DNA of 64,000 bases from positions 325,850 to 389,849 of the forward strand of contig CAWEJO010000010.1 in the NCBI GenBank assembly GCA_963809375.1. The letters are read 5' to 3'. Every line of letters begins with the position of its first letter. Position 1 is the first letter of the stretch. Positions 232-47,631 of this stretch are shown here, piece by piece. The translations under genes and the position numbers were made by a program. The notes beneath the pieces were generated by a model. That model was not told the origin of the DNA. It ran no database searches and was given only the letters and a program-made list of their open reading frames with translations. This DNA is from an uncultured Chloroflexia bacterium. GTDB taxonomy: Bacteria; Chloroflexota; Limnocylindria; Limnocylindrales; CSP1-4.

Positions 232-1017
232 TCAGTGCTTCGGCGGCGGCGTGTTCGCGTGAATGAACGCGAGGACCCGTTGCCACGCGTCGGCCGAGGC
301 CTGCTGGTAGTCGTCGGCCTTCCGGTCGAAGAAGGAGTGGGGCGCACCCGGGTAGACGTGGATCGAGTTCGGGACCCCGGCGGCCGACAACGCCTCCTCG
401 AAGGTCTCGACCAATTCGGCGGTGATTCCCTGGTCGGCACCGCCGAAGATGCCGAGCACCGGGGCGCGCATCTGCCCGGTCGAATCCGCGGGTGCCGGGA
501 TGTCATTGCGGCCCTGTCCGACGGGCCAGCCGTAGAACCCGATCACGCCCGCGAGGTCGAGCTCGAGCGTCGAAGTCATGAAGGCCAGCCGGCCGCCGAA
601 GCAGAATCCGATCGTGAACACGGCTCGAACACGATCGCCGTCGAGCGCCCGCAGGCGTTCGGCTGCGGCCTGGACGTCCCAGCCGAGGTTCGAGAAGCGC
701 GTCTCGCCGATGTGGGTCATGTAGTCGAAGTCCGTCGGGCGCTCCCGGATGCCGATCCCCGCGGTTCGACCGAAGTAGTCGAGGGCCAGGGCGTCGATCC
801 CGGCTTCGGCGAACCGAAGCGCGAGCTCTTCGTAGTACGGGTGAAGGCCGCGCACGTCCGGCAGGACGATGATGCCGGCGCCGGCCGGCTTGGCGGCCCT
901 GGCCACAAGGGCCGCGAACCTGCCGCCATCGCCCGCCCGAATGACAAGCTCTTCGATGTCGACGGCGCCGCCCGCGATCGGGGGGATCGGCGGATGACTG
1001 TCGAGGTCGAAGCACAT
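232..1017 (-). CDS. Dienelactone hydrolase family protein
   Basis: Frame of ORF 232..1158, started at ATG 1017 because the upstream 47 codons are Arg/Pro-rich junk. Motifs IIVLPDVRGL, GFCFGG (nucleophile elbow) and YPGAPHSF. Confidence 0.85.
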   Translation of the reverse strand: MCFDLDSHPPIPPIAGGAVDIEELVIRAGDGGRFAALVARAAKPAGAGIIVLPDVRGLHPYYEELALRFAEAGIDALALDYFGRTAGIGIRERPTDFDYMTHIGETRFSNLGWDVQAAAERLRALDGDRVRAVFTIGFCFGGRLAFMTSTLELDLAGVIGFYGWPVGQGRNDIPAPADSTGQMRAPVLGIFGGADQGITAELVETFEEALSAAGVPNSIHVYPGAPHSFFDRKADDYQQASADAWQRVLAFIHANTPPPKH

Positions 1018-1176
1018 GGCGCGGAATCCTCCGGATGGGCGGCACGGGCGGCGCGGACGGCGCGGACGGGCGCATCGTGCCACACGCGGCGCCCGGGAGT
1101 CGCGAGCGGACGGTTGCCGCCGGGGCGCGGGGCGGGCGAGCCCGGCCCGAGGCGCCAACCTGCGCCCCCCGCGCCG

Positions 1177-1526
1177 CCGATCCCGCTCGGCGCTCCCTGT
1201 GGCGCCGCGCCCCGTTACCGCTCGGCGCTCGCTGTGGCGCTGCGCCCCGATCCCGCTCGGCGCTCCCTGTGGCGCCGCGCCCCGATCCCGCTCGGCGCTC
1301 CCTGTGGCGCCGCGCCCCGTTCCCGCTCGGCGCTCGCTGTGGCGCTGCGCCCCGATCCCGCTCGGCGCTCGCTGTGGCGCCGCGCCCCGATCCCGCTCGG
1401 CGCTCCCTGTGGCGCCGCGCCCCGTTCCCGCTCGGCGCTCGCTGTGGCGCTGCGCCCCGATCCCGCTCGGCGCTGCCTCTGGCGCCGCGCCCCGATCCCG
1501 CTCGGCGCTGCCTCTGGCGCCGCGCG
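1177..1526. repeat. Tandem array, 10 x 35 bp, no spacers (minisatellite/VNTR-like)
   Basis: Unit CCGATCCCGCTCGGCGCTCCCTGTGGCGCCGCGCC repeats with an exact 35-bp period and three unit variants. Each unit carries the inverted repeat CGGCGC-N8-GCGCCG. Confidence 0.95.
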
Positions 1527-1532
1527 GACCTC

Positions 1533-1725
1533 AATTCCCTCCACAAGGTGCACGCAGTGCACCTTGTCGCAGGTTCGGGGCCCGGTGACTGCCTGAACAG
1601 CCGCTTTCCCCGGTGGTCTCCCGTCCGGACCACGCTCGGGCCGGGGTCGCGACCGCCTGTCCCTGGGCCACCGGTCGCCCGTCATCGACCGTAAGGTGCA
1701 CGCAGTGCACTTCGAGGAGGAAAGG
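1533..1725 (+). repeat. Palindrome-bounded ~190-bp element, copy L
   Basis: Bounded by ACAAGGTGCAC-GCA-GTGCACCTTGT (1543-1567, 11-nt perfect arms) and AAGGTGCAC-GCA-GTGCACTT (1693-1712). Its flanks and ends resemble copy R at 2717-2895. Confidence 0.7.
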
Positions 1726-1812
1726 TGGGGCGAGCGCTCCCGGCCGGCCGCCTGGATCGAGCGCGATGCGAGCGATACGCCTGCGATAAGGGCCAGCCGC
1801 CAGCATGGCCGC

Positions 1813-2580
1813 ATGAACTGGCTTCGGGTCGGTCGCCAGCTCCGTGGCATCCGATTGCATCGGAACATGCGCCAGCAGGACGTCGCCATTCGAGCTGGCG
1901 TGTCGCGATGGGTCGTCGCTCGTGTCGAGCGTGGACGGGTCGACGACCTCTCGATAGCGGCCATCGAAGCCGTCGCACGAGCCCTCGAGGCCGACGTCGA
2001 CCTTGTGGTGCGCTGGCGCGGCGCTGACATCGACCGCGTCATGGGAGCGGGCCACGCCGCGCTCCACGAGGCGATTGCCCGCCTGCTCGACTCGCGCGGC
2101 TGGGCATTCGTGCCTGAGCTCTCGTTCTCCATCTGGGGCGAGCGCGGCGTGATCGACGTCGTGGCCTGGCATGGACGTTCAAGGACACTGCTCGTCATCG
2201 AGATCAAGACCGAGATCGTCGACGTGCAGCGACTCATCGGCACCGTCGACCGATACGGCCGCCTCGCGCCTGCCGTTGTCCGCGAGCGCGGCTGGGTCCC
2301 CGACCGGGTGGCCGTCTGGGTGGCCGTCGCAAGCTCGTCGGCGAACCGGCGGCGGCTCGCCGAGCATTCGACCGTCCTCCGCGCTGCATTCCCTGATGAC
2401 GGTCGAGTTGTTCGCCGTTGGCTCGGCCGGCCGGATGGGCCGCTCCGCGCGCTGTCGTTCGTTGCCGTCGACGCAGTTCGTCAGCGAACGGCCGCGCGGG
2501 GATCGCGCTTGCGCGTCAGGCGCCCGAACCGGCCGAACCATCACGGGTTGAGGGCGAGCTCCAACATCGCCCTGGGGTAG
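1813..2580 (+). CDS. Hypothetical protein: XRE-type HTH domain fused to a PD-(D/E)xK (restriction-endonuclease-fold) domain
   Basis: Frame of ORF 1696..2580, ATG 1813 (255 aa). HTH segment MRQQDVAIRAGVSRWVVARVERG. Nuclease-fold triad: E in VPELSF, D in GVIDVVAW, ExK in LLVIEIKTE. Confidence 0.75.
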   Translation: MNWLRVGRQLRGIRLHRNMRQQDVAIRAGVSRWVVARVERGRVDDLSIAAIEAVARALEADVDLVVRWRGADIDRVMGAGHAALHEAIARLLDSRGWAFVPELSFSIWGERGVIDVVAWHGRSRTLLVIEIKTEIVDVQRLIGTVDRYGRLAPAVVRERGWVPDRVAVWVAVASSSANRRRLAEHSTVLRAAFPDDGRVVRRWLGRPDGPLRALSFVAVDAVRQRTAARGSRLRVRRPNRPNHHGLRASSNIALG

Positions 2581-2603
2581 GGCCGCGCGATCACCCTGTC
2601 CCC

Positions 2604-2628
2604 GTGCATGGCCGAGCGACATGCAGTG
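2604..2628 (+). terminator. Hairpin just after the HTH-nuclease stop (split variant of the island palindrome)
   Basis: GTGCATGGC-N7-CATGCAGTG with TGCATG/CATGCA arms, 24 nt after the stop at 2578-2580. No U-tract. Confidence 0.25.
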
Positions 2629-2716
2629 ACGGCTGTTGGCGCCGAGCGGCCGGGATCGTCGTCGGCGCATCCGCAGCCGGCGCTTCGGCGCGAGAGACCC
2701 GGCGCTCCGCCCACGC

Positions 2717-2895
2717 AATCCTCCGCGAAGTGCATGGCATGCACCTTGCAGCGAATTCGTGGCCCGGACGGGCATGTCCAGGGTCGCCCGCCGCTGCCTC
2801 CCGAGCGCGCCTCGATCAGCGTCGCGGGCGAGCAGGGCGCCCTCCCGTCGCGATACCTCTCGCAAGGTGCACGGAGTGCACATAGCGGACGATTT
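2717..2895 (+). repeat. Palindrome-bounded ~190-bp element, copy R (diverged direct copy of 1533-1725)
   Basis: Bounded by AAGTGCAT-GGC-ATGCACCTT (2728-2747) and AAGGTGCAC-GGA-GTGCAC (2864-2881). The left flank AATCCTCCGCGAAG and the right-of-palindrome GCAGCGAATTCGTGGCCCGG match copy L. Confidence 0.65.
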
Positions 2896-2990
2896 CGGGC
2901 GGCGGCACCCATGCCCTTGCCGGCCGCGGCCATCGCGCGGCCCTCGCGTGCAGTGCCGCTGACCCGGACCCGGGTTCGAGGGCGCCACCG

Positions 2991-3267
2991 CGGCGGCGGC
3001 GCGCCCAATCGCGGCGGCGCGCCCAATCGCGGCGGCCGCACGCCCAATCGCTGCGGCCACGGCCTCTCGCCGCCGCGGCGGGCGCTGCCCCGCTGCTCCG
3101 CCGCGGCGACGCTCCCGCCGGTGACCGGGCCGCCCCGCTGCTCCGCCGCGCCATGGCCGCCGACGCTCCCGCCGGTGACCGGGCCGCCCCGCTGCTCCGC
3201 CGCGCCGCGGCGGCCGCAGCCGCCGCGCCGCGGCCACCGACGCTCCCGCCGGTGACCGGGCCGCCCG
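2991..3267. repeat. Composite tandem repeats (3 x 18/21 bp, then 2.5 x 43-bp core)
   Basis: GCGGCGGCGCGCCCAATC at 2993-3010, 3011-3028 and 3029-3049 (the last has +3 bp). GACGCTCCCGCCGGTGACCGGGCCGCCCCGCTGCTCCGCCGCG at 3108-3150 and 3162-3204, truncated at 3239-3266. Confidence 0.85.
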
Positions 3268-3283
3268 GCTACAATCCGGCCCG

Positions 3284-4561
3284 ATGGCCACGCCACTCGT
3301 CGTGATGAAGTTCGGCGGCTCGTCGGTCGGCAATGCCGATCGCATCCGGCGCGTCGCGCGGCGGATCGCCCGCGCCCGCGAGGAGGGTGTCGACCTGTGC
3401 GTCGTGGTGAGCGCGATGGGCGACACCACCGACGAGCTGCTCGCCCTGGCGGCGGCCGTCACGGAGGATCCCGACCTGCGCGAGCTCGACATGCTCCTCG
3501 CGACCGGCGAGCACCAGAGCGCGACCCTGATGTCCATGGCGCTGCATGCCCTCGGCGTGGGGGCGATCAGCCTCACCGGCGCCCAGGCCGGGATCCGGAC
3601 CGACGGGACCTACGGCAAGGCCCGGATCGCGGGGATCGACCCGATCCGGATCCACACCGAGATCGCGAGCGGCAAGGTCGTGATCGTGGCCGGCTTCCAG
3701 GGCCAGAGCGCCAAGGCGCTCGAGCTCGCCGAGACGACCACCCTCGGCCGGGGCGGCTCCGACACCACCGCAGTCGCGCTCGCGGCCGCGCTCCGCGCCG
3801 ACCGCTGCCAGATCTTCACGGACGTGAAGGGGATCTTCACCGCCGACCCGCGCCTGGTCGCGGACGCCCGCCAGCTGTCGGTGATCGGGTACGAGGAGAT
3901 GCTCGAGCTCGCCCACCAGGGCGCGCAGGTCATGCAGGTGCGCGCCGTCGAGCTCGGCTGGGTCAACGGCGTCGTCATCGAGGTCCTCAGCTCCTTCGAG
4001 GAAGCGCCGGGGACGCTGATCAAGGAGGACCCGCTCGTGGAGCAGCGCAACAAGGTCCGCGGGATCGCCCACGACCGGAACGTCGCCAAGGTCACCCTCG
4101 TCCAGGTGCCAGACCGGCCTGGCGTGGCGAGCGCCGTGTTCGGCGCGCTCGCCGACGCCGCCGTCGTCGTCGACATGATCGTCCAGAACGTCGGCCACGG
4201 CGGCGCGACGGACATGAGCTTCACGCTGCCGCGGGTCGACCTGGCGAAGGCCAAGCGGGTCCTCGAGCCGCTCGTCCGCGAGCTCGGCTTTCGCGAGATG
4301 ACGACCGACGCATCGATCGCCAAGGTGTCGATCGTCGGTGCCGGGCTCCACAACGCGCCCGGCTACGCCGCCCGCATGTTCGGGACGCTCGCCGAGAACG
4401 GCGTCAACATCGAGATGATCTCCACCTCGGAAGTCCGGATCACCTGCACGATCGCCGAGGACCAGCTCGAGCAGGCCGTCACGGCGCTCCACGCAACCTT
4501 CGAGCTGGCGAGCCCGGACCCCGTGGACGCGGCCGCCGCGCCGGGCCCCGGGGCGAGCTGA
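3284..4561 (+). CDS. lysC: Aspartate kinase
   Basis: 425-aa ORF. N-terminal VVMKFGGSSV, VVSAMGDTTDELL, and C-terminal ACT-type regulatory region. Confidence 0.95.
   Translation: MATPLVVMKFGGSSVGNADRIRRVARRIARAREEGVDLCVVVSAMGDTTDELLALAAAVTEDPDLRELDMLLATGEHQSATLMSMALHALGVGAISLTGAQAGIRTDGTYGKARIAGIDPIRIHTEIASGKVVIVAGFQGQSAKALELAETTTLGRGGSDTTAVALAAALRADRCQIFTDVKGIFTADPRLVADARQLSVIGYEEMLELAHQGAQVMQVRAVELGWVNGVVIEVLSSFEEAPGTLIKEDPLVEQRNKVRGIAHDRNVAKVTLVQVPDRPGVASAVFGALADAAVVVDMIVQNVGHGGATDMSFTLPRVDLAKAKRVLEPLVRELGFREMTTDASIAKVSIVGAGLHNAPGYAARMFGTLAENGVNIEMISTSEVRITCTIAEDQLEQAVTALHATFELASPDPVDAAAAPGPGAS
4037..4561 (+). CDS. lysC: Possible aspartokinase beta subunit from an in-frame internal start
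   Basis: AAGGAGGA (4022-4029) lies 7 nt before an in-frame GTG at 4037, at the start of the ACT region. Nested alpha/beta lysC subunits are known in high-GC Gram-positives. Confidence 0.45.
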   Translation: MEQRNKVRGIAHDRNVAKVTLVQVPDRPGVASAVFGALADAAVVVDMIVQNVGHGGATDMSFTLPRVDLAKAKRVLEPLVRELGFREMTTDASIAKVSIVGAGLHNAPGYAARMFGTLAENGVNIEMISTSEVRITCTIAEDQLEQAVTALHATFELASPDPVDAAAAPGPGAS

Positions 4562-5435: not shown

Positions 5436-6084
5436 GTGTTCAGGAGAGGTGAGGGAGCAGAGGCGGCCGGCACGGTTCGGCGGGTGGTCCCGCTCGATCC
5501 GGACCGGTCGCTGGTGCGGGCCGCGCAGGCGGATCCGGCCAGCTTCGACGCCCTCTACCGGAAGTACGTCGGACAGGTCTACAGCTTTGCCTATCACGAG
5601 CTCGCCGATCACCACGAGGCGGAGGACGTGACCGAACGGTCGTTCCTGCTCGCCCTCGACGCCCTCCCGCGCTTCCACGAGGAGGCGCCCGTCGAGGCCG
5701 GGCCGGAGGCGTCCACGTTCCGCGTGTGGCTCTTCCGGATCGCCCGCAACGCGATCTCGAACCAGCGCCGGGCCCAGCGCCGGCGGCCCACGGCTCCCCT
5801 CGAACGCCGTCGCGGCCATCGCCGCGGCCGACGACGTGGAGGCTCGGGCGATCGCCCGGGCCGATGCCCTCGAAGCGTGGGCCGCGGTCCGGCGGCTGCC
5901 CGACGACCGGCGCCGCGCCCTCGAGCTGCGGTTCGTCGAGGAGATGAGCACCGCGGAGATCGCCGGCGTGCTCGGCAAGTCCGAGGGCTCGGTTCGCGTC
6001 CTGCTCCACCGGGCCCTGCGGGCGGTTGCGAACGACCTCGGCGCTCGCGGCCACGGCCCGTCCGGCGAAGGCCGGCGGCCGTGA
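5436..6084 (+). CDS. ECF-type sigma-70 family sigma factor; frame broken near 5805
   Basis: Region 2 (FDALYRKY..WLFRIARNAISN) is in frame 3 and region 4 (RLPDDRRRALELRFVEEMSTAEIAGVLGKSEGSVRV) in frame 1. Start GTG 5436 or 5484 is uncertain. Confidence 0.8.
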
Positions 6085-6710
6085 ACGGCCACCTCGATCC
6101 CCTGGGGCGCATCGGGCGCCTCGACGCCGAAGCGCTCGCGACGGACCACTACCTCGAATCGCTGCTGGCCTCCGCGGTTCGGCGCGAGCCCGACGCCGAG
6201 CCCCCGGCGGAGGTCGATCCGGCCCTGGAGGCGGTTGCCATCGCCCTGCGCGACGGCGCCGTCCGGGTCCACCCGAGCTTCCGGTTCGAGGAGCGGCTGG
6301 CTCGCCGCCTCGCCGAGGCCGCTGCGGACCTTCGTCTCGTGCCGGCGGCGAGCGGCGAGACCGGGGCCCCGGTCATCGCCTTCCGGAGGGCCGGCGGCGC
6401 CGCGGCCGGTGTCGCCGCGGCCGGTGTCGCCGCGCCCGGTGTCGCCGCGGCCGACGTCGCCGCGGCCGGCGTCGCCGCGGCCGGCATCGCCGCGGAAGAC
6501 GTCGCCGAGGGAGCCGCGCGCGCGGCGCAGGGCTCTCCGCGCCCGATCGCCCGACCGCTCATCGTGGGTGGCGCGCTCACCTCGGCCGCGATCTCGATCG
6601 CGGGCGCCGCGTTCGTCGCGTGGCGGCTCGCCCGCTCGGGGGCAGCCGGCGCCGGCGCGCCCGGATCGGCCGCCGGATCGCTGCCCGGCCTGCTCCGGAG
6701 GCTCGACTGA
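6081..6710 (+). CDS. Putative anti-sigma factor / single-pass membrane protein
   Basis: GTG 6081 overlaps the sigma-factor stop (GTGA). C-terminal TM segment PLIVGGALTSAAISIAGAAFVAW. No recognisable anti-sigma motif; the call rests on position only. Confidence 0.45.
   Translation: MNGHLDPLGRIGRLDAEALATDHYLESLLASAVRREPDAEPPAEVDPALEAVAIALRDGAVRVHPSFRFEERLARRLAEAAADLRLVPAASGETGAPVIAFRRAGGAAAGVAAAGVAAPGVAAADVAAAGVAAAGIAAEDVAEGAARAAQGSPRPIARPLIVGGALTSAAISIAGAAFVAWRLARSGAAGAGAPGSAAGSLPGLLRRLD
6396..6500 (+). repeat. Coding 15-bp tandem repeat (7 units) giving (AAGVA)n
   Basis: GTCGCCGCGGCCGGT-like units repeat with an exact 15-bp period inside CDS 6081-6710. Confidence 0.85.
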
Positions 6711-8726: not shown

Positions 8727-9710
8727 TGGCTCACCCGCGAGGACGCCAGCCTGCCCGGGCGCGGACCCGCGGATCGCCTCGCCGATCACGCCACGATCGA
8801 TCGCCTGGCGACCGACCTGCTGCCGGCGCTCGTCGCCCAGCTCGGGGCAAGCGGTCTCGGTGAGCTCGAGGTCCGCGAGGGCCCGTGGCGCCTGCGGCTG
8901 CGCATGCCGGCCGAGGCCGCCGAGCGCGCCCGGGCGATCGCGGGGTCAGTGTCCGACGACCCCGGGCACGTCCAGCTGGCCCTGCCTGACCCCGCGGCGG
9001 CCCAGGCCGGCGCGGCGGCCTCCGACCCGACGGTCGCGAGCGCCGCCGGCGAAACGCCCCCCGGCGCCGGCGCGCCGGGCGAAGCGCCAGCCGCTGGGTC
9101 GAACGGGGCCGCCGCCGTCGCGACGGCCGGCGAGATCGGCGGGGCGGCGCCGCGGGTCGTGGCGACGTCCCCCGCGGTCGGCTTCTTCCGGCCGCGGCCC
9201 GCCCTGGTGGAGGGCGCGACGCTCAAGGCCGGCGCCGTGCTCGGATCGGTCGACGTCCTGGGCGTGGCCCAGGAGGTCACGGCGCCGGCCGCCGGGATCG
9301 TCGTGCGCTTCCTCGTCGAGCCGGGCGAGCCGGTCGAGTACGGCCAGGAGATCCTCGAGATCGGCCAGCCGCCGGCCGCGATCGCGCCGCCGGTTCGCCG
9401 CGCGCCCGACAAGCCGGCCCTGCCCGACGAGCCGCCCCTGCCAGGAGCCCGCCGCTCGGCCGACGACCTGGCCCTGCCGGGCGAACCGTCCCTGCCGGGC
9501 GAACCGTCCCTGCCGGGCGAACCCGGGGCGCAGGAAGCGCGGCCCTCGCCGCGTGGCGCCCCCGCCCCGGCCTCGCCGCCGAACCCCGGAGCCGACGGAG
9601 CGCCCGCGCCCGACCCCGGCGCCGGAGTGGCGCCGATGCCCGACCCGGCCGCGGCCACGCCGCCGGACCCCGGCGCCGGAGTGGCGCCCGCGCCCGAGGG
9701 CGGCGCCTGA
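8727..9710 (+). CDS. BCCP-like biotinyl-domain protein lacking the biotinylation lysine; no canonical start for its conserved N-terminus
   Basis: The frame is open from 8724. It carries the BCCP N-domain-like LGELEVREGPWRLRLR and a barrel segment SPAVGFF..VDVLGVAQEVTAPAAGIVV..GEPVEYGQEILEI, where LGVA replaces EAMK. The first in-frame ATG is only at 8904. Confidence 0.7.
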   Translation, partial: WLTREDASLPGRGPADRLADHATIDRLATDLLPALVAQLGASGLGELEVREGPWRLRLRMPAEAAERARAIAGSVSDDPGHVQLALPDPAAAQAGAAASDPTVASAAGETPPGAGAPGEAPAAGSNGAAAVATAGEIGGAAPRVVATSPAVGFFRPRPALVEGATLKAGAVLGSVDVLGVAQEVTAPAAGIVVRFLVEPGEPVEYGQEILEIGQPPAAIAPPVRRAPDKPALPDEPPLPGARRSADDLALPGEPSLPGEPSLPGEPGAQEARPSPRGAPAPASPPNPGADGAPAPDPGAGVAPMPDPAAATPPDPGAGVAPAPEGGA

Positions 9711-13657: not shown

Positions 13658-14440
13658 TGAGCCAGGCCGACCCGGCAGCGGACACGGCCGCCCGGCCGGC
13701 TGCCCCGCCGGCCGCCCCCGACGATGGGACCGCGACGGCCGACGCTTCCGTGGGCGCCGACACGTCCGGCGACGCTTCCGCCGCGTCCGCCGCGGGGCAG
13801 CGGCCGAGCACTCCGCGCGGCGGCAGCGGCCGAGCACTCCGCCGCGTCCGCCGCGTCCGCGGCAGCGGCCGAGCACTCCGCCGCGGCGGCAGCGGCCGAC
13901 GCTTCCCTCCTCGCGCTCGTCGGGCGGCTGGCCGCCGCGCTCGCGGACAGCGACCTCACCGAGCTCGAGGTCGAGGCCGGCGAGACCGCGCTCCTGCTCC
14001 GCAAGCCCGGCCCCGCTCCGATCGTCATCGGCGTCACGGCGCCGGCGGCACCAGGTGTCACGGCCGCGCCCAACGCCACGGCCGCAGCCCCGGCCCCCGA
14101 CGGCGGACCGGCGGCTCCCGCCGCGGCCGGCGCATCGGCCAGGGCCGCGTCGGGCGCCCATTCGACCGCGGCGCCGGAGCGCCTGGCAGGGCACGCCGGC
14201 CGCCTCGTCGTCGCGGCGCCCCTCACCGGCGTCTGGTACGCGTCGGCGAGCCCCGGGTCGCCGCCCTTCGTGGCCGTCGGGAGCGAGATCGCCGTCGGCC
14301 ACGTGATCGGCCTGATCGAGGCGATGAAGCTGTTCAACGAGATCAAGTCGGATCGCGCCGGCCGCGTCGTGCGGGTCGTGCCTGAGAACGGGGCCCTCGT
14401 GCGGGCCAAGCAGCCGCTGATCGAGGTGGAGCCACTGTGA
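13657..14440 (+). CDS. accB: Biotin carboxyl carrier protein (canonical); frame broken within 13794-13826
   Basis: ATG 13657 is in frame 1 and the C-terminal two thirds are in frame 2. Canonical IGLIEAMKLFNEI motif. Confidence 0.85.
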
Positions 14441-46578: not shown

Positions 46579-47631
46579 CTACCGGGGTGGTCGGGCATAC
46601 GTGTCGGCGACGAGGACACGGCTCATGCGGTCGAGCTCCTCGAGCACGACGCCAGTGCCCCGGGCGACGCAGGTGAGCGGGTCGTCGGCGACATGGACAG
46701 GCATCTGGGTGGCTTCGGCGATCCGGCGGTCGAGGCCAAGGAGGAGCGCGCCGCCGCCGGCGACGACGATCCCCTGGTCCATGATGTCGGCGACGAGCTC
46801 GGGTGGCGTCTCCTCGATCGTGTCCTTGATCGTGTCGACGATCTGGGCCACCGACGGCTCGATGGCCTCGCGGATCTGGTCGGCGCCGACCTCGACGCTG
46901 CGCGGCAGGCCGGTGAGCAGGTCGCGGCCGCGGAGCAGGATGCGCTGGGCGTCCCAGTCGCCCGGGTAAGCCGACGCGATGGCGATCTTGATGTCCTCGG
47001 CGGTCCGCTCGCCGAGGAGCAGGTTGTACTCGCGACGGGCGAAGTTGACGATGTCGACGTCCATCTCGTCGCCGCCGACCCGGATGCTCCGCGAGACGAC
47101 GATGCCGCCGAGGCTGATGACGGCAACCTCGGTCGTGCCACCGCCGATGTCGACGATGAGGCTCCCGGTCGGCTCGCTCACCGGGAGGCCCGCCCCGATC
47201 GCCGCGGCCATCGGCTCCTCGATGAGGCGCGCCCAGCGGGCGCCGGCGTTGAGGGCGGCGTCGCGCACGGCCCGCTTCTCGACCTCGGTGACCCCGGAAG
47301 GGATGCCGAGCACCATCCGGGGCCGCGGGATGAGCCCGATCCGGTCGTGCACGCGGTGCACGAAGTACTTGATCATCTGCTCGGTGACGTCGAAGTCGCT
47401 GATGACGCCGTCGCGCAGGGGTCGGATCGCGATGATGTTGGCCGGCGTGCGGCCGACCATCCGCTTGGCTTCGGCGCCGATGGCGAGGACCTTCTTCGTC
47501 TTCGCGTCGATCGCGACCACGCTCGGCTCGCTGATGACGATCCCGCGGTCGCGAACGTGCACGAGCGTGTTCGCCGTGCCGAGGTCGATCCCGATGTCGC
47601 GGGAGAAGAGGCCCAGGAGCGCGTCGAGCAT
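46579..47631 (-). CDS. mreB: Rod shape-determining protein MreB
   Basis: Motifs IGIDLGTANT, DIGGGTTEVA, GIVVAGGGALL. Confidence 0.95.
   Translation of the reverse strand: MLDALLGLFSRDIGIDLGTANTLVHVRDRGIVISEPSVVAIDAKTKKVLAIGAEAKRMVGRTPANIIAIRPLRDGVISDFDVTEQMIKYFVHRVHDRIGLIPRPRMVLGIPSGVTEVEKRAVRDAALNAGARWARLIEEPMAAAIGAGLPVSEPTGSLIVDIGGGTTEVAVISLGGIVVSRSIRVGGDEMDVDIVNFARREYNLLLGERTAEDIKIAIASAYPGDWDAQRILLRGRDLLTGLPRSVEVGADQIREAIEPSVAQIVDTIKDTIEETPPELVADIMDQGIVVAGGGALLLGLDRRIAEATQMPVHVADDPLTCVARGTGVVLEELDRMSRVLVADTYARPPR

Follow-up and report, generated by a model that had tools for sequence, protein, structure and literature searches.

What are four copies of a palindrome doing around a lone nuclease gene? 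The gene in question (1813-2580, plus strand) lies in a 64-kb stretch of DNA from an uncultured Chloroflexia bacterium (contig CAWEJO010000010.1; the whole stretch is called the window here, and all window coordinates refer to positions in it). It encodes a 255-amino-acid (aa) protein in which an XRE-type helix-turn-helix (HTH) domain is fused to a PD-(D/E)xK nuclease fold, and it is flanked on each side by a pair of palindromes built on GTGCAC-N3-GTGCAC. We favor the view that these palindromes form a cis element that belongs to the HTH-nuclease gene and not to the genome at large. We place first, tentatively and at slightly less than an even chance, the explanation that the four palindromes are a gene-linked cis element recognized by the gene's own product. 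The original prediction for this locus had offered three readings, namely operators for the HTH-nuclease, a miniature inverted-repeat transposable element (MITE) or insertion sequence (IS)-like unit, and structured RNAs; the evidence cleanly favors none of them. We file the locus as an XRE-type DNA-binding protein with putative cognate palindromes, a nuclease fusion, and an unusual repeat architecture.

GTGCAC-N3-GTGCAC is present exactly at 1548-1562, 1696-1710, and 2867-2881 and as the variant GTGCAT-GGC-ATGCAC at 2730-2744. When up to two mismatches were allowed, the window contained 12 matches compared to 3.5 expected, a number attained by no shuffle. The four copies are part of an oriented motif of ~26 to 35 nucleotides (nt), TCCNCNAN-GTGCAY-N3-RTGCAC-CTT, and the 26-nt oriented pattern TCCNCNANGTGCAYNNNRTGCACCTT matched exactly four sites in the 64 kb, at 1540-1565 (plus strand), 1693-1718 (minus), 2722-2747 (plus), and 2864-2889 (minus), which confirmed the positions originally claimed for the palindromes. 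At up to three mismatches, the sole additional match in the window was the reverse reading of palindrome 1 (0.01 expected), and a profile of the four arms recovered its own four arms at E values of ~1e-11 and nothing else credible. Palindrome 1 (1545-1565, AAGGTGCAC-GCA-GTGCACCTT) has perfect arms that reach 11 nt (1543-1567) and a local hairpin with a z score of -4.8. Palindrome 2 (1693-1713, AAGGTGCAC-GCA-GTGCACTTC) is centered ~110 bp upstream of the HTH-nuclease start codon and overlaps TAAGGT, a -10-like hexamer upstream of the gene. Palindrome 3 (2727-2747, GAAGTGCAT-GGC-ATGCACCTT) lies ~150 bp past the stop codon, and palindrome 4 (2864-2884, AAGGTGCAC-GGA-GTGCACATA) lies ~400 bp upstream of lysC. 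A fifth exact GTGCAC-N3-GTGCAC, at 47347-47361, is found in apparent minus-strand coding sequence without the arm flanks and probably arose by chance.

The palindromes are organized as two inverted pairs, which we identified by inverted-repeat search and the arm profile. The left unit (1533-1725) consists of two inverted arms of ~31 nt around a nonconserved interior of ~127 bp, and the right unit (2714-2897) consists of two inverted 36-nt arms around ~112 bp. A repeat finder placed the left arms at 1535-1565 and 1693-1723 (31 nt, 77% complementary; arm-profile E values of 1.5e-11 and 6e-12) and the right arms at 2714-2749 and 2862-2897 (36 nt, 78% complementary; 9e-12 and 4e-12), and the sites of each pair are inverted and 137 to 148 bp apart. 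The imperfect inverted repeat that had been said to frame the gene was recovered as a 40-nt pair (1693-1732 and 2708-2747; 78% complementary). The proposal that the two units are copies of one ~190-bp element held for the ends but not for the interiors, which are not demonstrably alike; the likeness between the units is confined to their ~35-nt ends and ~20 nt inside the two left ends. A Shine-Dalgarno role for the outer GGAGGA boxes of the arms was considered and rejected: the only suitably spaced start, a GTG at 1725, opens an out-of-frame, arginine-rich, and unsupported open reading frame (ORF).

The coding sequence between the two units is real, since >782 homologs begin at a matching start. 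Six alternative ORFs in the surrounding island had zero Pfam matches, and 1813-2580 stands, as originally proposed, as the only supported coding sequence there. Residues 6 to 67 matched HTH_31 (37.9 bits; cutoff of 27; E = 2e-9) and HTH_3 (29.4 bits; cutoff of 23), and residues 1 to 65 are closest in sequence and in structure (Foldseek) to the C proteins of restriction-modification systems and to the HipB and HigA antitoxins. An AlphaFold2 model based on an alignment of 55 sequences had a pLDDT of 89.9 overall and of 94 to 98 over residues 81 to 220, and its core runs helix, three strands, helix, strand, which is the order of a restriction-endonuclease-like alpha/beta core. Foldseek matches to the C-terminal domain were the R2 endonuclease domain (top match, E = 1e-4), EndoMS/NucS (3.5e-3), XisH (4e-3), and AF1548 (4.3e-3), with modest TM-scores of 0.25 to 0.32. 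Among the 55 homologs, D115, E130, and K132 never vary, and E102 is kept in at least 90%. By its Pfam scores, the protein belongs to the XRE HTH family, and by the model and these residues, it belongs to the PD-(D/E)xK superfamily with its E...D...ExK motif intact, in agreement with the assignment first made from the translation.

The family that shares the nuclease domain comprises ~975 clusters at 50% identity (E <= 1e-10), and nearly all of its members are ~250 aa long with the domain at residues 70 to 220. No significant match to the domain was found in Pfam, NCBIfam, PADLOC, or PHROGs. The only sequence families touching it, MmcB-like (PF06319) and YhcG-type (PF06250), scored below their curated cutoffs (16.9 versus 22 bits and 14.2 versus 32.5 bits, respectively), and the collections searched held no curated model or solved structure covering the domain. 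The protein collection searched did not contain an identical copy of the 255-aa protein, and tblastn found no paralog in the window. A literature search returned nothing relevant on an XRE/PD-(D/E)xK fusion or a GTGCAC operator. Together with the Rfam, plasmid, phage, and viral searches given below, these results are consistent with the original statement that no described family has this layout.

We next turn to the distribution of the motif outside the window. A scan of 185,579 reference genomes (a collection that does not include the source genome) with the 26-nt pattern returned four isolated matches. Two of these are coincidental, one lying in apparent coding sequence (L003) and one being a GTGCACCTT tandem repeat (L005), and the remaining two fall in Bacteroidota assemblies. 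Neither the pattern nor the profile detected further arms in the remaining 62 kb of the window or at related loci, and GTGCAY-N3-RTGCAC was absent from every homolog and synteny locus examined (~200 kb). Among these same loci, the exact 9-mer AAGGTGCAC/GTGCACCTT occurred only in L007, twice beside the homolog. A metagenome protein scan yielded no locus above 62% identity, and the palindrome was found in none. Viral records with at least two matches to AAGGTGCAC-N3-GTGCAC were set aside, since most proved to be triplet repeats of the collagen-like kind and a few were ordinary terminators from DNA with ~50% G+C. Within the data searched, the motif shows little sign of being a dispersed repeat family.

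Sequence comparison showed instead that the motif is linked to one clade of the HTH-nuclease gene. This minority clade, in which the recognition helix starts with V-S-R-W (the SRW clade), comprises the window protein, its closest homologs P0001 and P0002 (76% and 75% identical, respectively), and the proteins of L007, L011, L037, and L001; at the last four loci, the gene has a thiolase gene on one side and an acyl-CoA dehydrogenase gene on the other. The majority clade has a V-P-R-A recognition helix, lies between an IMP-dehydrogenase-like gene and a NUDIX gene, and has no arm site. Most of the family (<=62% identity) thus keeps the gene without the palindromes, and the nearest clade does not. 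Downstream of the homologs in L007, L011, and L037, 110 to 150 bp past the stop codon, there is a related site. The L007 copy (AAGGTGCAC-GCC-ACGCACGTT, 121 bp past the stop) matched the arm profile at E = 7.6e-4. L011 and L037 keep an orthologous block, in which CCCGCAAGGTGC is the longest identical run in an otherwise diverged spacer. A four-way alignment sets this block in register with palindrome 3, with ATC..C.C.A.G.GC.......GCAC invariant, and palindrome 3 is the positional equivalent of the downstream site at all three loci.

Around the majority-clade gene (L002, L035, and L036, ~5000), the order is IMP-dehydrogenase-like, HTH-nuclease, NUDIX, CdAMP_rec, GGDEF, and thymidylate kinase. 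This nucleotide-metabolism and signaling neighborhood might be a hint at the function of that clade.

We rank recognition of the palindromes by the protein first because the geometry of the dyads fits, the adjacent gene encodes an operator-type HTH, and the site follows the recognition-helix clade. Every copy forms a 9+3+9 dyad whose GTGC and GCAC cores stand about one helical turn apart, an arrangement that would suit a dimeric HTH, and the positions that are invariant in the four-way alignment, G.GC-N7-GCAC, count in its favor. So do the confinement of the 26-nt pattern to the flanks of the gene within the 64 kb and the lack of a rival feature in the island, where neither another ORF with a family match nor an Rfam family turned up. 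C proteins, HipB, and HigA dimerize and occupy palindromic operators next to the genes that encode them. By this model, the HTH domain of the adjacent protein would dock on the palindromes and thereby repress or tune the protein's own expression. The sites may also position the nuclease domain, and the inverted pairs could be bridged by oligomers or extruded as hairpins. The gene and its sites would have arrived together as an insertion of ~2.2 kb between a hydrolase gene and lysC. Binding of these sites by the protein, a regulatory effect, and any cleavage are what we infer.

Several observations weigh against this explanation, and its main weakness is location. The site in the homologs is downstream and pairs with coding sequence, which argues for a role of nucleic acid structure, and the single site in L007, L011, and L037 lies past the gene and between convergent genes, unlike the expected autoregulatory operator. 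What stands of the operator proposal is that a related site travels with the closest SRW-helix homologs; its placement at a promoter does not. A search for a sigma-70 consensus promoter found none. L001 has the SRW helix (as the variant SRWMIGR) yet has no site, and the L011 and L037 sites are not significant alone (E >= 5, arm profile), so that the linkage rests on one significant match plus orthology. The arms themselves also exceed a simple operator: their conserved sequence extends beyond the dyad (TCCTCC, on the outer side), and they pair with each other over 31 to 36 nt, which is more than such an operator needs. Finally, the distal arm covaries with the coding segment in the homologs, which favors base pairing over protein recognition.

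The pairing with coding sequence is a feature of the wider family. In L007, L011, and L037, the coding segment at the conserved L-S-F-L-x-D codons recurs as its reverse complement in the downstream block, so that the C-terminal tail, the stop codon, and a spacer of ~120 nt are enclosed in a long stem (4531-4560 with 4747-4776 in L007; 2146-2180 with 2356-2392 in L037). An inverted copy of this segment is found 0 to 250 nt past the stop in many homologs, including the more distant ones of L026, L024, and L018 and that of L020. The repeat is strongest in L026 (z = 7.1), followed by L024 (4.5), L007 (3.7), L037 (3.2), and L018 (2.4), and its arm sequences differ from locus to locus. We compared 45-nt coding segments to the downstream 330 nt at 23 loci, and the segment at the L-S-F-L-x-D codons ranked first for downstream complementarity at 6 of them compared to 0.57 expected (p ~2e-5, a binomial estimate). 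The sequence TGNCAGGA, the complement of TTCCTGNCA at the F-L-S codons, occurred exactly and on the sense strand downstream of the gene at 6 loci compared to ~0.4, an expectation estimated from base composition. These two counts, together with the 3' region of L007, which folds as a rod closed by the arm sequences (z = -3.5), are consistent with a different explanation, namely that the arms form the two sides of long stem-loops, which would function as RNA in the 5' or 3' untranslated region or as extruded DNA hairpins, independently of binding by the HTH-nuclease. Such stem-loops would serve as terminators lacking a U-tract, as transcript stabilizers, or as processing sites.

Within the window, folding gave a divided answer on stem-loops. 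The right unit as a whole folds with a z score of -5.1 and a well-defined ensemble, and the left unit is marginal (z = -1.95). The interiors are not significantly structured by themselves compared to shuffles (z = +1.3 for the left and -1.8 for the right), so it is the arms that produce the rod-like folding of the whole units. The halves of each unit are 70 to 72% alike, and a palindrome spanning the whole unit was considered on that basis and rejected, because the interiors fold like shuffles and the signal is that of the arms. Arm-to-arm covariation is weak when the units are compared (8 columns are compensated, and 21 are paired in one unit only). The near-perfect local dyads in each arm would be unnecessary for long-range pairing. 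The window coding sequence has no long-range partner at the L-S-F-L-x-D codons (rank 32 of 46); at the position of the homologs' proximal arm, it has a local hairpin at the S-F-V codons (2441-2508, plus strand; minimum free energy of -38.7 kcal/mol, z = -2.6). No U-tract is present, and Rfam gave no match at its gathering threshold in the whole window and only chance-level hits (E >= 1) in 1000-3400. The original structured-RNA proposal therefore gains from the family-wide 3' inverted repeat and loses from the weak covariation between the window units, and we regard stem-loops acting without the protein as unlikely, though a serious contender.

A hairpin that starts with CACCCTGTC 10 to 20 nt past the HTH-nuclease stop is shared by the window (2591-2634) and L007 (4637-4680). 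The window copy holds the previously described split palindrome, GTGCATG-N9-CATGCA (2604-2628), which is indeed present, but as a hairpin it is weak and no stabler than shuffles (z = +0.96). The outer TCCTCC/GGAGGA boxes of the window arms resemble TTCCTG/CAGGAA in the 3'-repeat arms of the homologs, and the free-standing inverted pairs of the window may have been derived from an ancestral 3' repeat by inverted duplication and upstream copying.

Recognition by the protein, a role for structure, and the mobile-cassette explanation discussed below need not compete: they would come together in a protein whose sequence-specific HTH brought a structure-specific PD-(D/E)xK nuclease to a hairpin or cruciform. 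A bolder possibility is a self-contained nuclease cassette of a new kind, in which the sequence-specific HTH-PD-(D/E)xK enzyme would recognize and cut the hairpin-forming palindromic ends that flank its own gene, or overlap it in relatives, for mobility, programmed rearrangement, or processing. The family-wide 3' inverted repeat would then be the conserved substrate, and the system would be an analog, with another fold, of homing endonucleases or of repetitive extragenic palindromes (REPs) and REP-associated tyrosine transposases (RAYTs). We consider such a cassette quite improbable.

The gene and its sites lie in an island of ~2.2 kb (1086-3262) between a dienelactone hydrolase (DLH) gene (232-1017, minus strand; Pfam DLH, E = 4.7e-39) and the aspartate kinase gene lysC (3284-4561, plus strand; 100% identical to P0121, with Pfam AA_kinase and ACT domains). 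The island is lineage specific, as similarity to L032 ends after GCGCATCGTGCCACAC (1070-1085) and restarts at CTACAATCCGGCCCG (3269-3283). The DLH gene (minus strand) directly adjoins lysC (plus strand) in L032, L033, and L034, whose LysC proteins are 91%, 87%, and 88% identical, and the hydrolase-lysC spacers of these relatives (~256, 138, and ~620 bp, respectively, from start codon to start codon) contain neither the HTH-nuclease gene nor the palindromes. The island that had been proposed between these two genes is thus matched by three empty sites. Among the sequences closest to the window LysC, those with a named source are annotated as Chloroflexi/Chloroflexota bacterium and Candidatus Limnocylindrales bacterium.

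This presence/absence polymorphism is what would be expected if the island were a present or former mobile cassette, with the units as MITE/IS-like ends or recombination sites and the HTH-nuclease as the enzyme that recognizes and cuts them, much like a RAYT gene among its REPs or a free-standing homing endonuclease but with a PD-(D/E)xK fold. The arms of 31 to 36 nt resemble terminal inverted repeats, and the two units bracket the gene in direct orientation. The SRW-clade gene sits elsewhere in L001, L007, L011, and L037 and the majority clade in yet another context, and structurally the nuclease domain is matched best by a site-specific endonuclease from retrotransposons, that of R2. The region just upstream of lysC also varies among close relatives. 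However, we found no target-site duplication at the island borders and no direct repeat of at least 4 nt flanking the units, whose borders (CCTCAA/left unit/AGGTGG and CACGCA/right unit/TCGGGC) are uncertain by a few bases. There were no further copies in the 64 kb or in related loci, and the plasmid, phage, and viral collections yielded no homolog. Neighboring genes are kept across homologs only 54 to 62% identical to the query, indicating long vertical inheritance, and the divergence between the two units is far too great to be recent. TnsA of Tn7 needs TnsB, and no transposon is known to have a PD-(D/E)xK protein as its sole enzyme. The lack of target-site duplications, the lack of other copies in the sequence searched, and the long-term synteny weaken the MITE/IS-like proposal, and we think a mobile cassette improbable.

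The remaining alternative takes the adjacency of gene and sites to be incidental: the sites would serve another factor, for instance a global regulator whose gene lies elsewhere, or would be inverted duplications in decay that no longer have a function. In favor of this, palindromes 1 and 4 face the DLH and lysC promoters, repeats abound in the G+C-rich spacers of the lineage, the adjacent protein is only predicted to bind, and the visible genome amounts to 64 kb. An incidental association is nevertheless hard to reconcile with four copies within 1.4 kb and none elsewhere in the 64 kb, or with a related site beside a homolog in an unrelated genomic context, and the conservation of the ends next to diverged interiors points to constraint on the ends. 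We hold this alternative to be very doubtful.

The island also contains tandem arrays. A 35-bp unit is repeated 10.2 times at 1169-1525 (TRF score of 600, 92% matches), directly abutting the left unit, and arrays of 18/21-bp and 54-bp units occupy 2989-3250 between the right unit and lysC. The 35-bp array is probably not specific to the HTH-nuclease system because similar G+C-rich arrays, with units of 15 to 105 bp, are common in intergenic spacers of the window and of related genomes (for example, at 6389-6526, 9404-9697, and 13777-13899 in the window and at 4487-4860 in L001). To the right of the island, the order lysC, birA-like gene, sigma factor gene, and acetyl-CoA carboxylase gene is as in the relatives. 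A TACAAT box 8 nt upstream of the lysC ATG is conserved in L032 and L034 (window, 3270-3286; L032, ~5966-5983; L034, ~3181-3197), which suggests a leaderless or near-leaderless lysC transcript. On the contig of P0122, a pyridine-nucleotide oxidoreductase gene takes the place of the hydrolase gene upstream of lysC, and the gene call for P0125 has an N-terminal extension of 160 residues that reads like a PIN/VapC toxin, as a candidate only. The spacer upstream of lysC may be an insertion hot spot. In L034, the hydrolase homolog contains an in-frame tandem repeat of about four copies of an 18-nt unit (~2095-2190), which may explain why no Pfam hit is recorded for it.

If recognition by the HTH-nuclease is the correct explanation, its consequences depend on what the protein does at these sites. 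A protein that only represses its own gene would be a standard XRE regulator that happens to carry an unusual fusion, while one that cuts the flanking hairpins would represent a new type of mobile or self-processing element. The candidate roles are an autoregulated nuclease, a structure-specific processing enzyme, and a selfish element. This locus and those of its homologs provide the first link between the HTH-PD-(D/E)xK family and a specific cis-acting DNA element, and they supply concrete substrates for probing the function of the protein.

Among known systems, the closest match to the HTH (residues 1 to 65) is with the C proteins and their C-box operators (C.AhdI, C.Esp1396I, and C.BclI). 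C proteins bind dyad-symmetric operators beside their own genes, often as two adjacent dimers. Here, in contrast, the HTH is fused to a nuclease fold, the neighbors are a hydrolase gene and lysC and not a methyltransferase or separate endonuclease gene, and the sites form inverted pairs ~140 bp apart on both sides of the gene, or lie downstream of it in the homologs. A restriction-modification unit was rejected, as no methyltransferase gene accompanies the HTH-nuclease gene in the island or at the homolog loci and the window shows no depletion of GTGCAC (15 sites compared to 12 to 20 expected). A type II toxin-antitoxin module was rejected as well, because the gene is solitary, with no partner ORF that has family support, and its homologs are solitary too. 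MmcB-like and YhcG-type nucleases differ in that neither family has an XRE fusion.

With the REP/RAYT systems ("REPtrons"), the locus shares the layout of a single gene bracketed by inverted palindromic repeats capable of forming hairpins. RAYTs, however, are HUH/Y1 proteins resembling the TnpA of IS200/IS605, whereas the protein here is of the PD-(D/E)xK type, which places the locus outside the REP/RAYT class; REPs also number tens to hundreds of copies per genome, compared to none away from the gene in the available sequence. The likeness to MITEs and composite transposons lies in units of 180 to 190 bp with terminal inverted repeats of 31 to 36 nt, in their direct orientation around a passenger gene, and in their absence from the equivalent site in relatives. 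Of the defining MITE/IS features, the inverted repeats alone were found; target-site duplications and a cognate transposase are lacking, no dispersed copies were seen in the rest of the window or at related loci, and the unit interiors are unrelated. Homing endonucleases offer a parallel in that a site-specific nuclease gene is present or absent at an otherwise conserved locus, here the DLH-lysC spacer, and I-TevI also represses its own expression, through an operator similar to the site that it cleaves. They differ in that the HTH-nuclease homologs are stably syntenic without phage or intron context and that cleavage is here a prediction only. The attC sites of integrons, finally, resemble the 3' repeat of the homologs as imperfect inverted repeats with conserved arms and a variable center at or across the 3' end of an ORF. 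The repeats described here have no RYYYAAC/GTTRRRY cores, integrase gene, or cassette array, and, unlike attC sites, they have their proximal arm in the homologs at a set codon position that is conserved within a single protein family.

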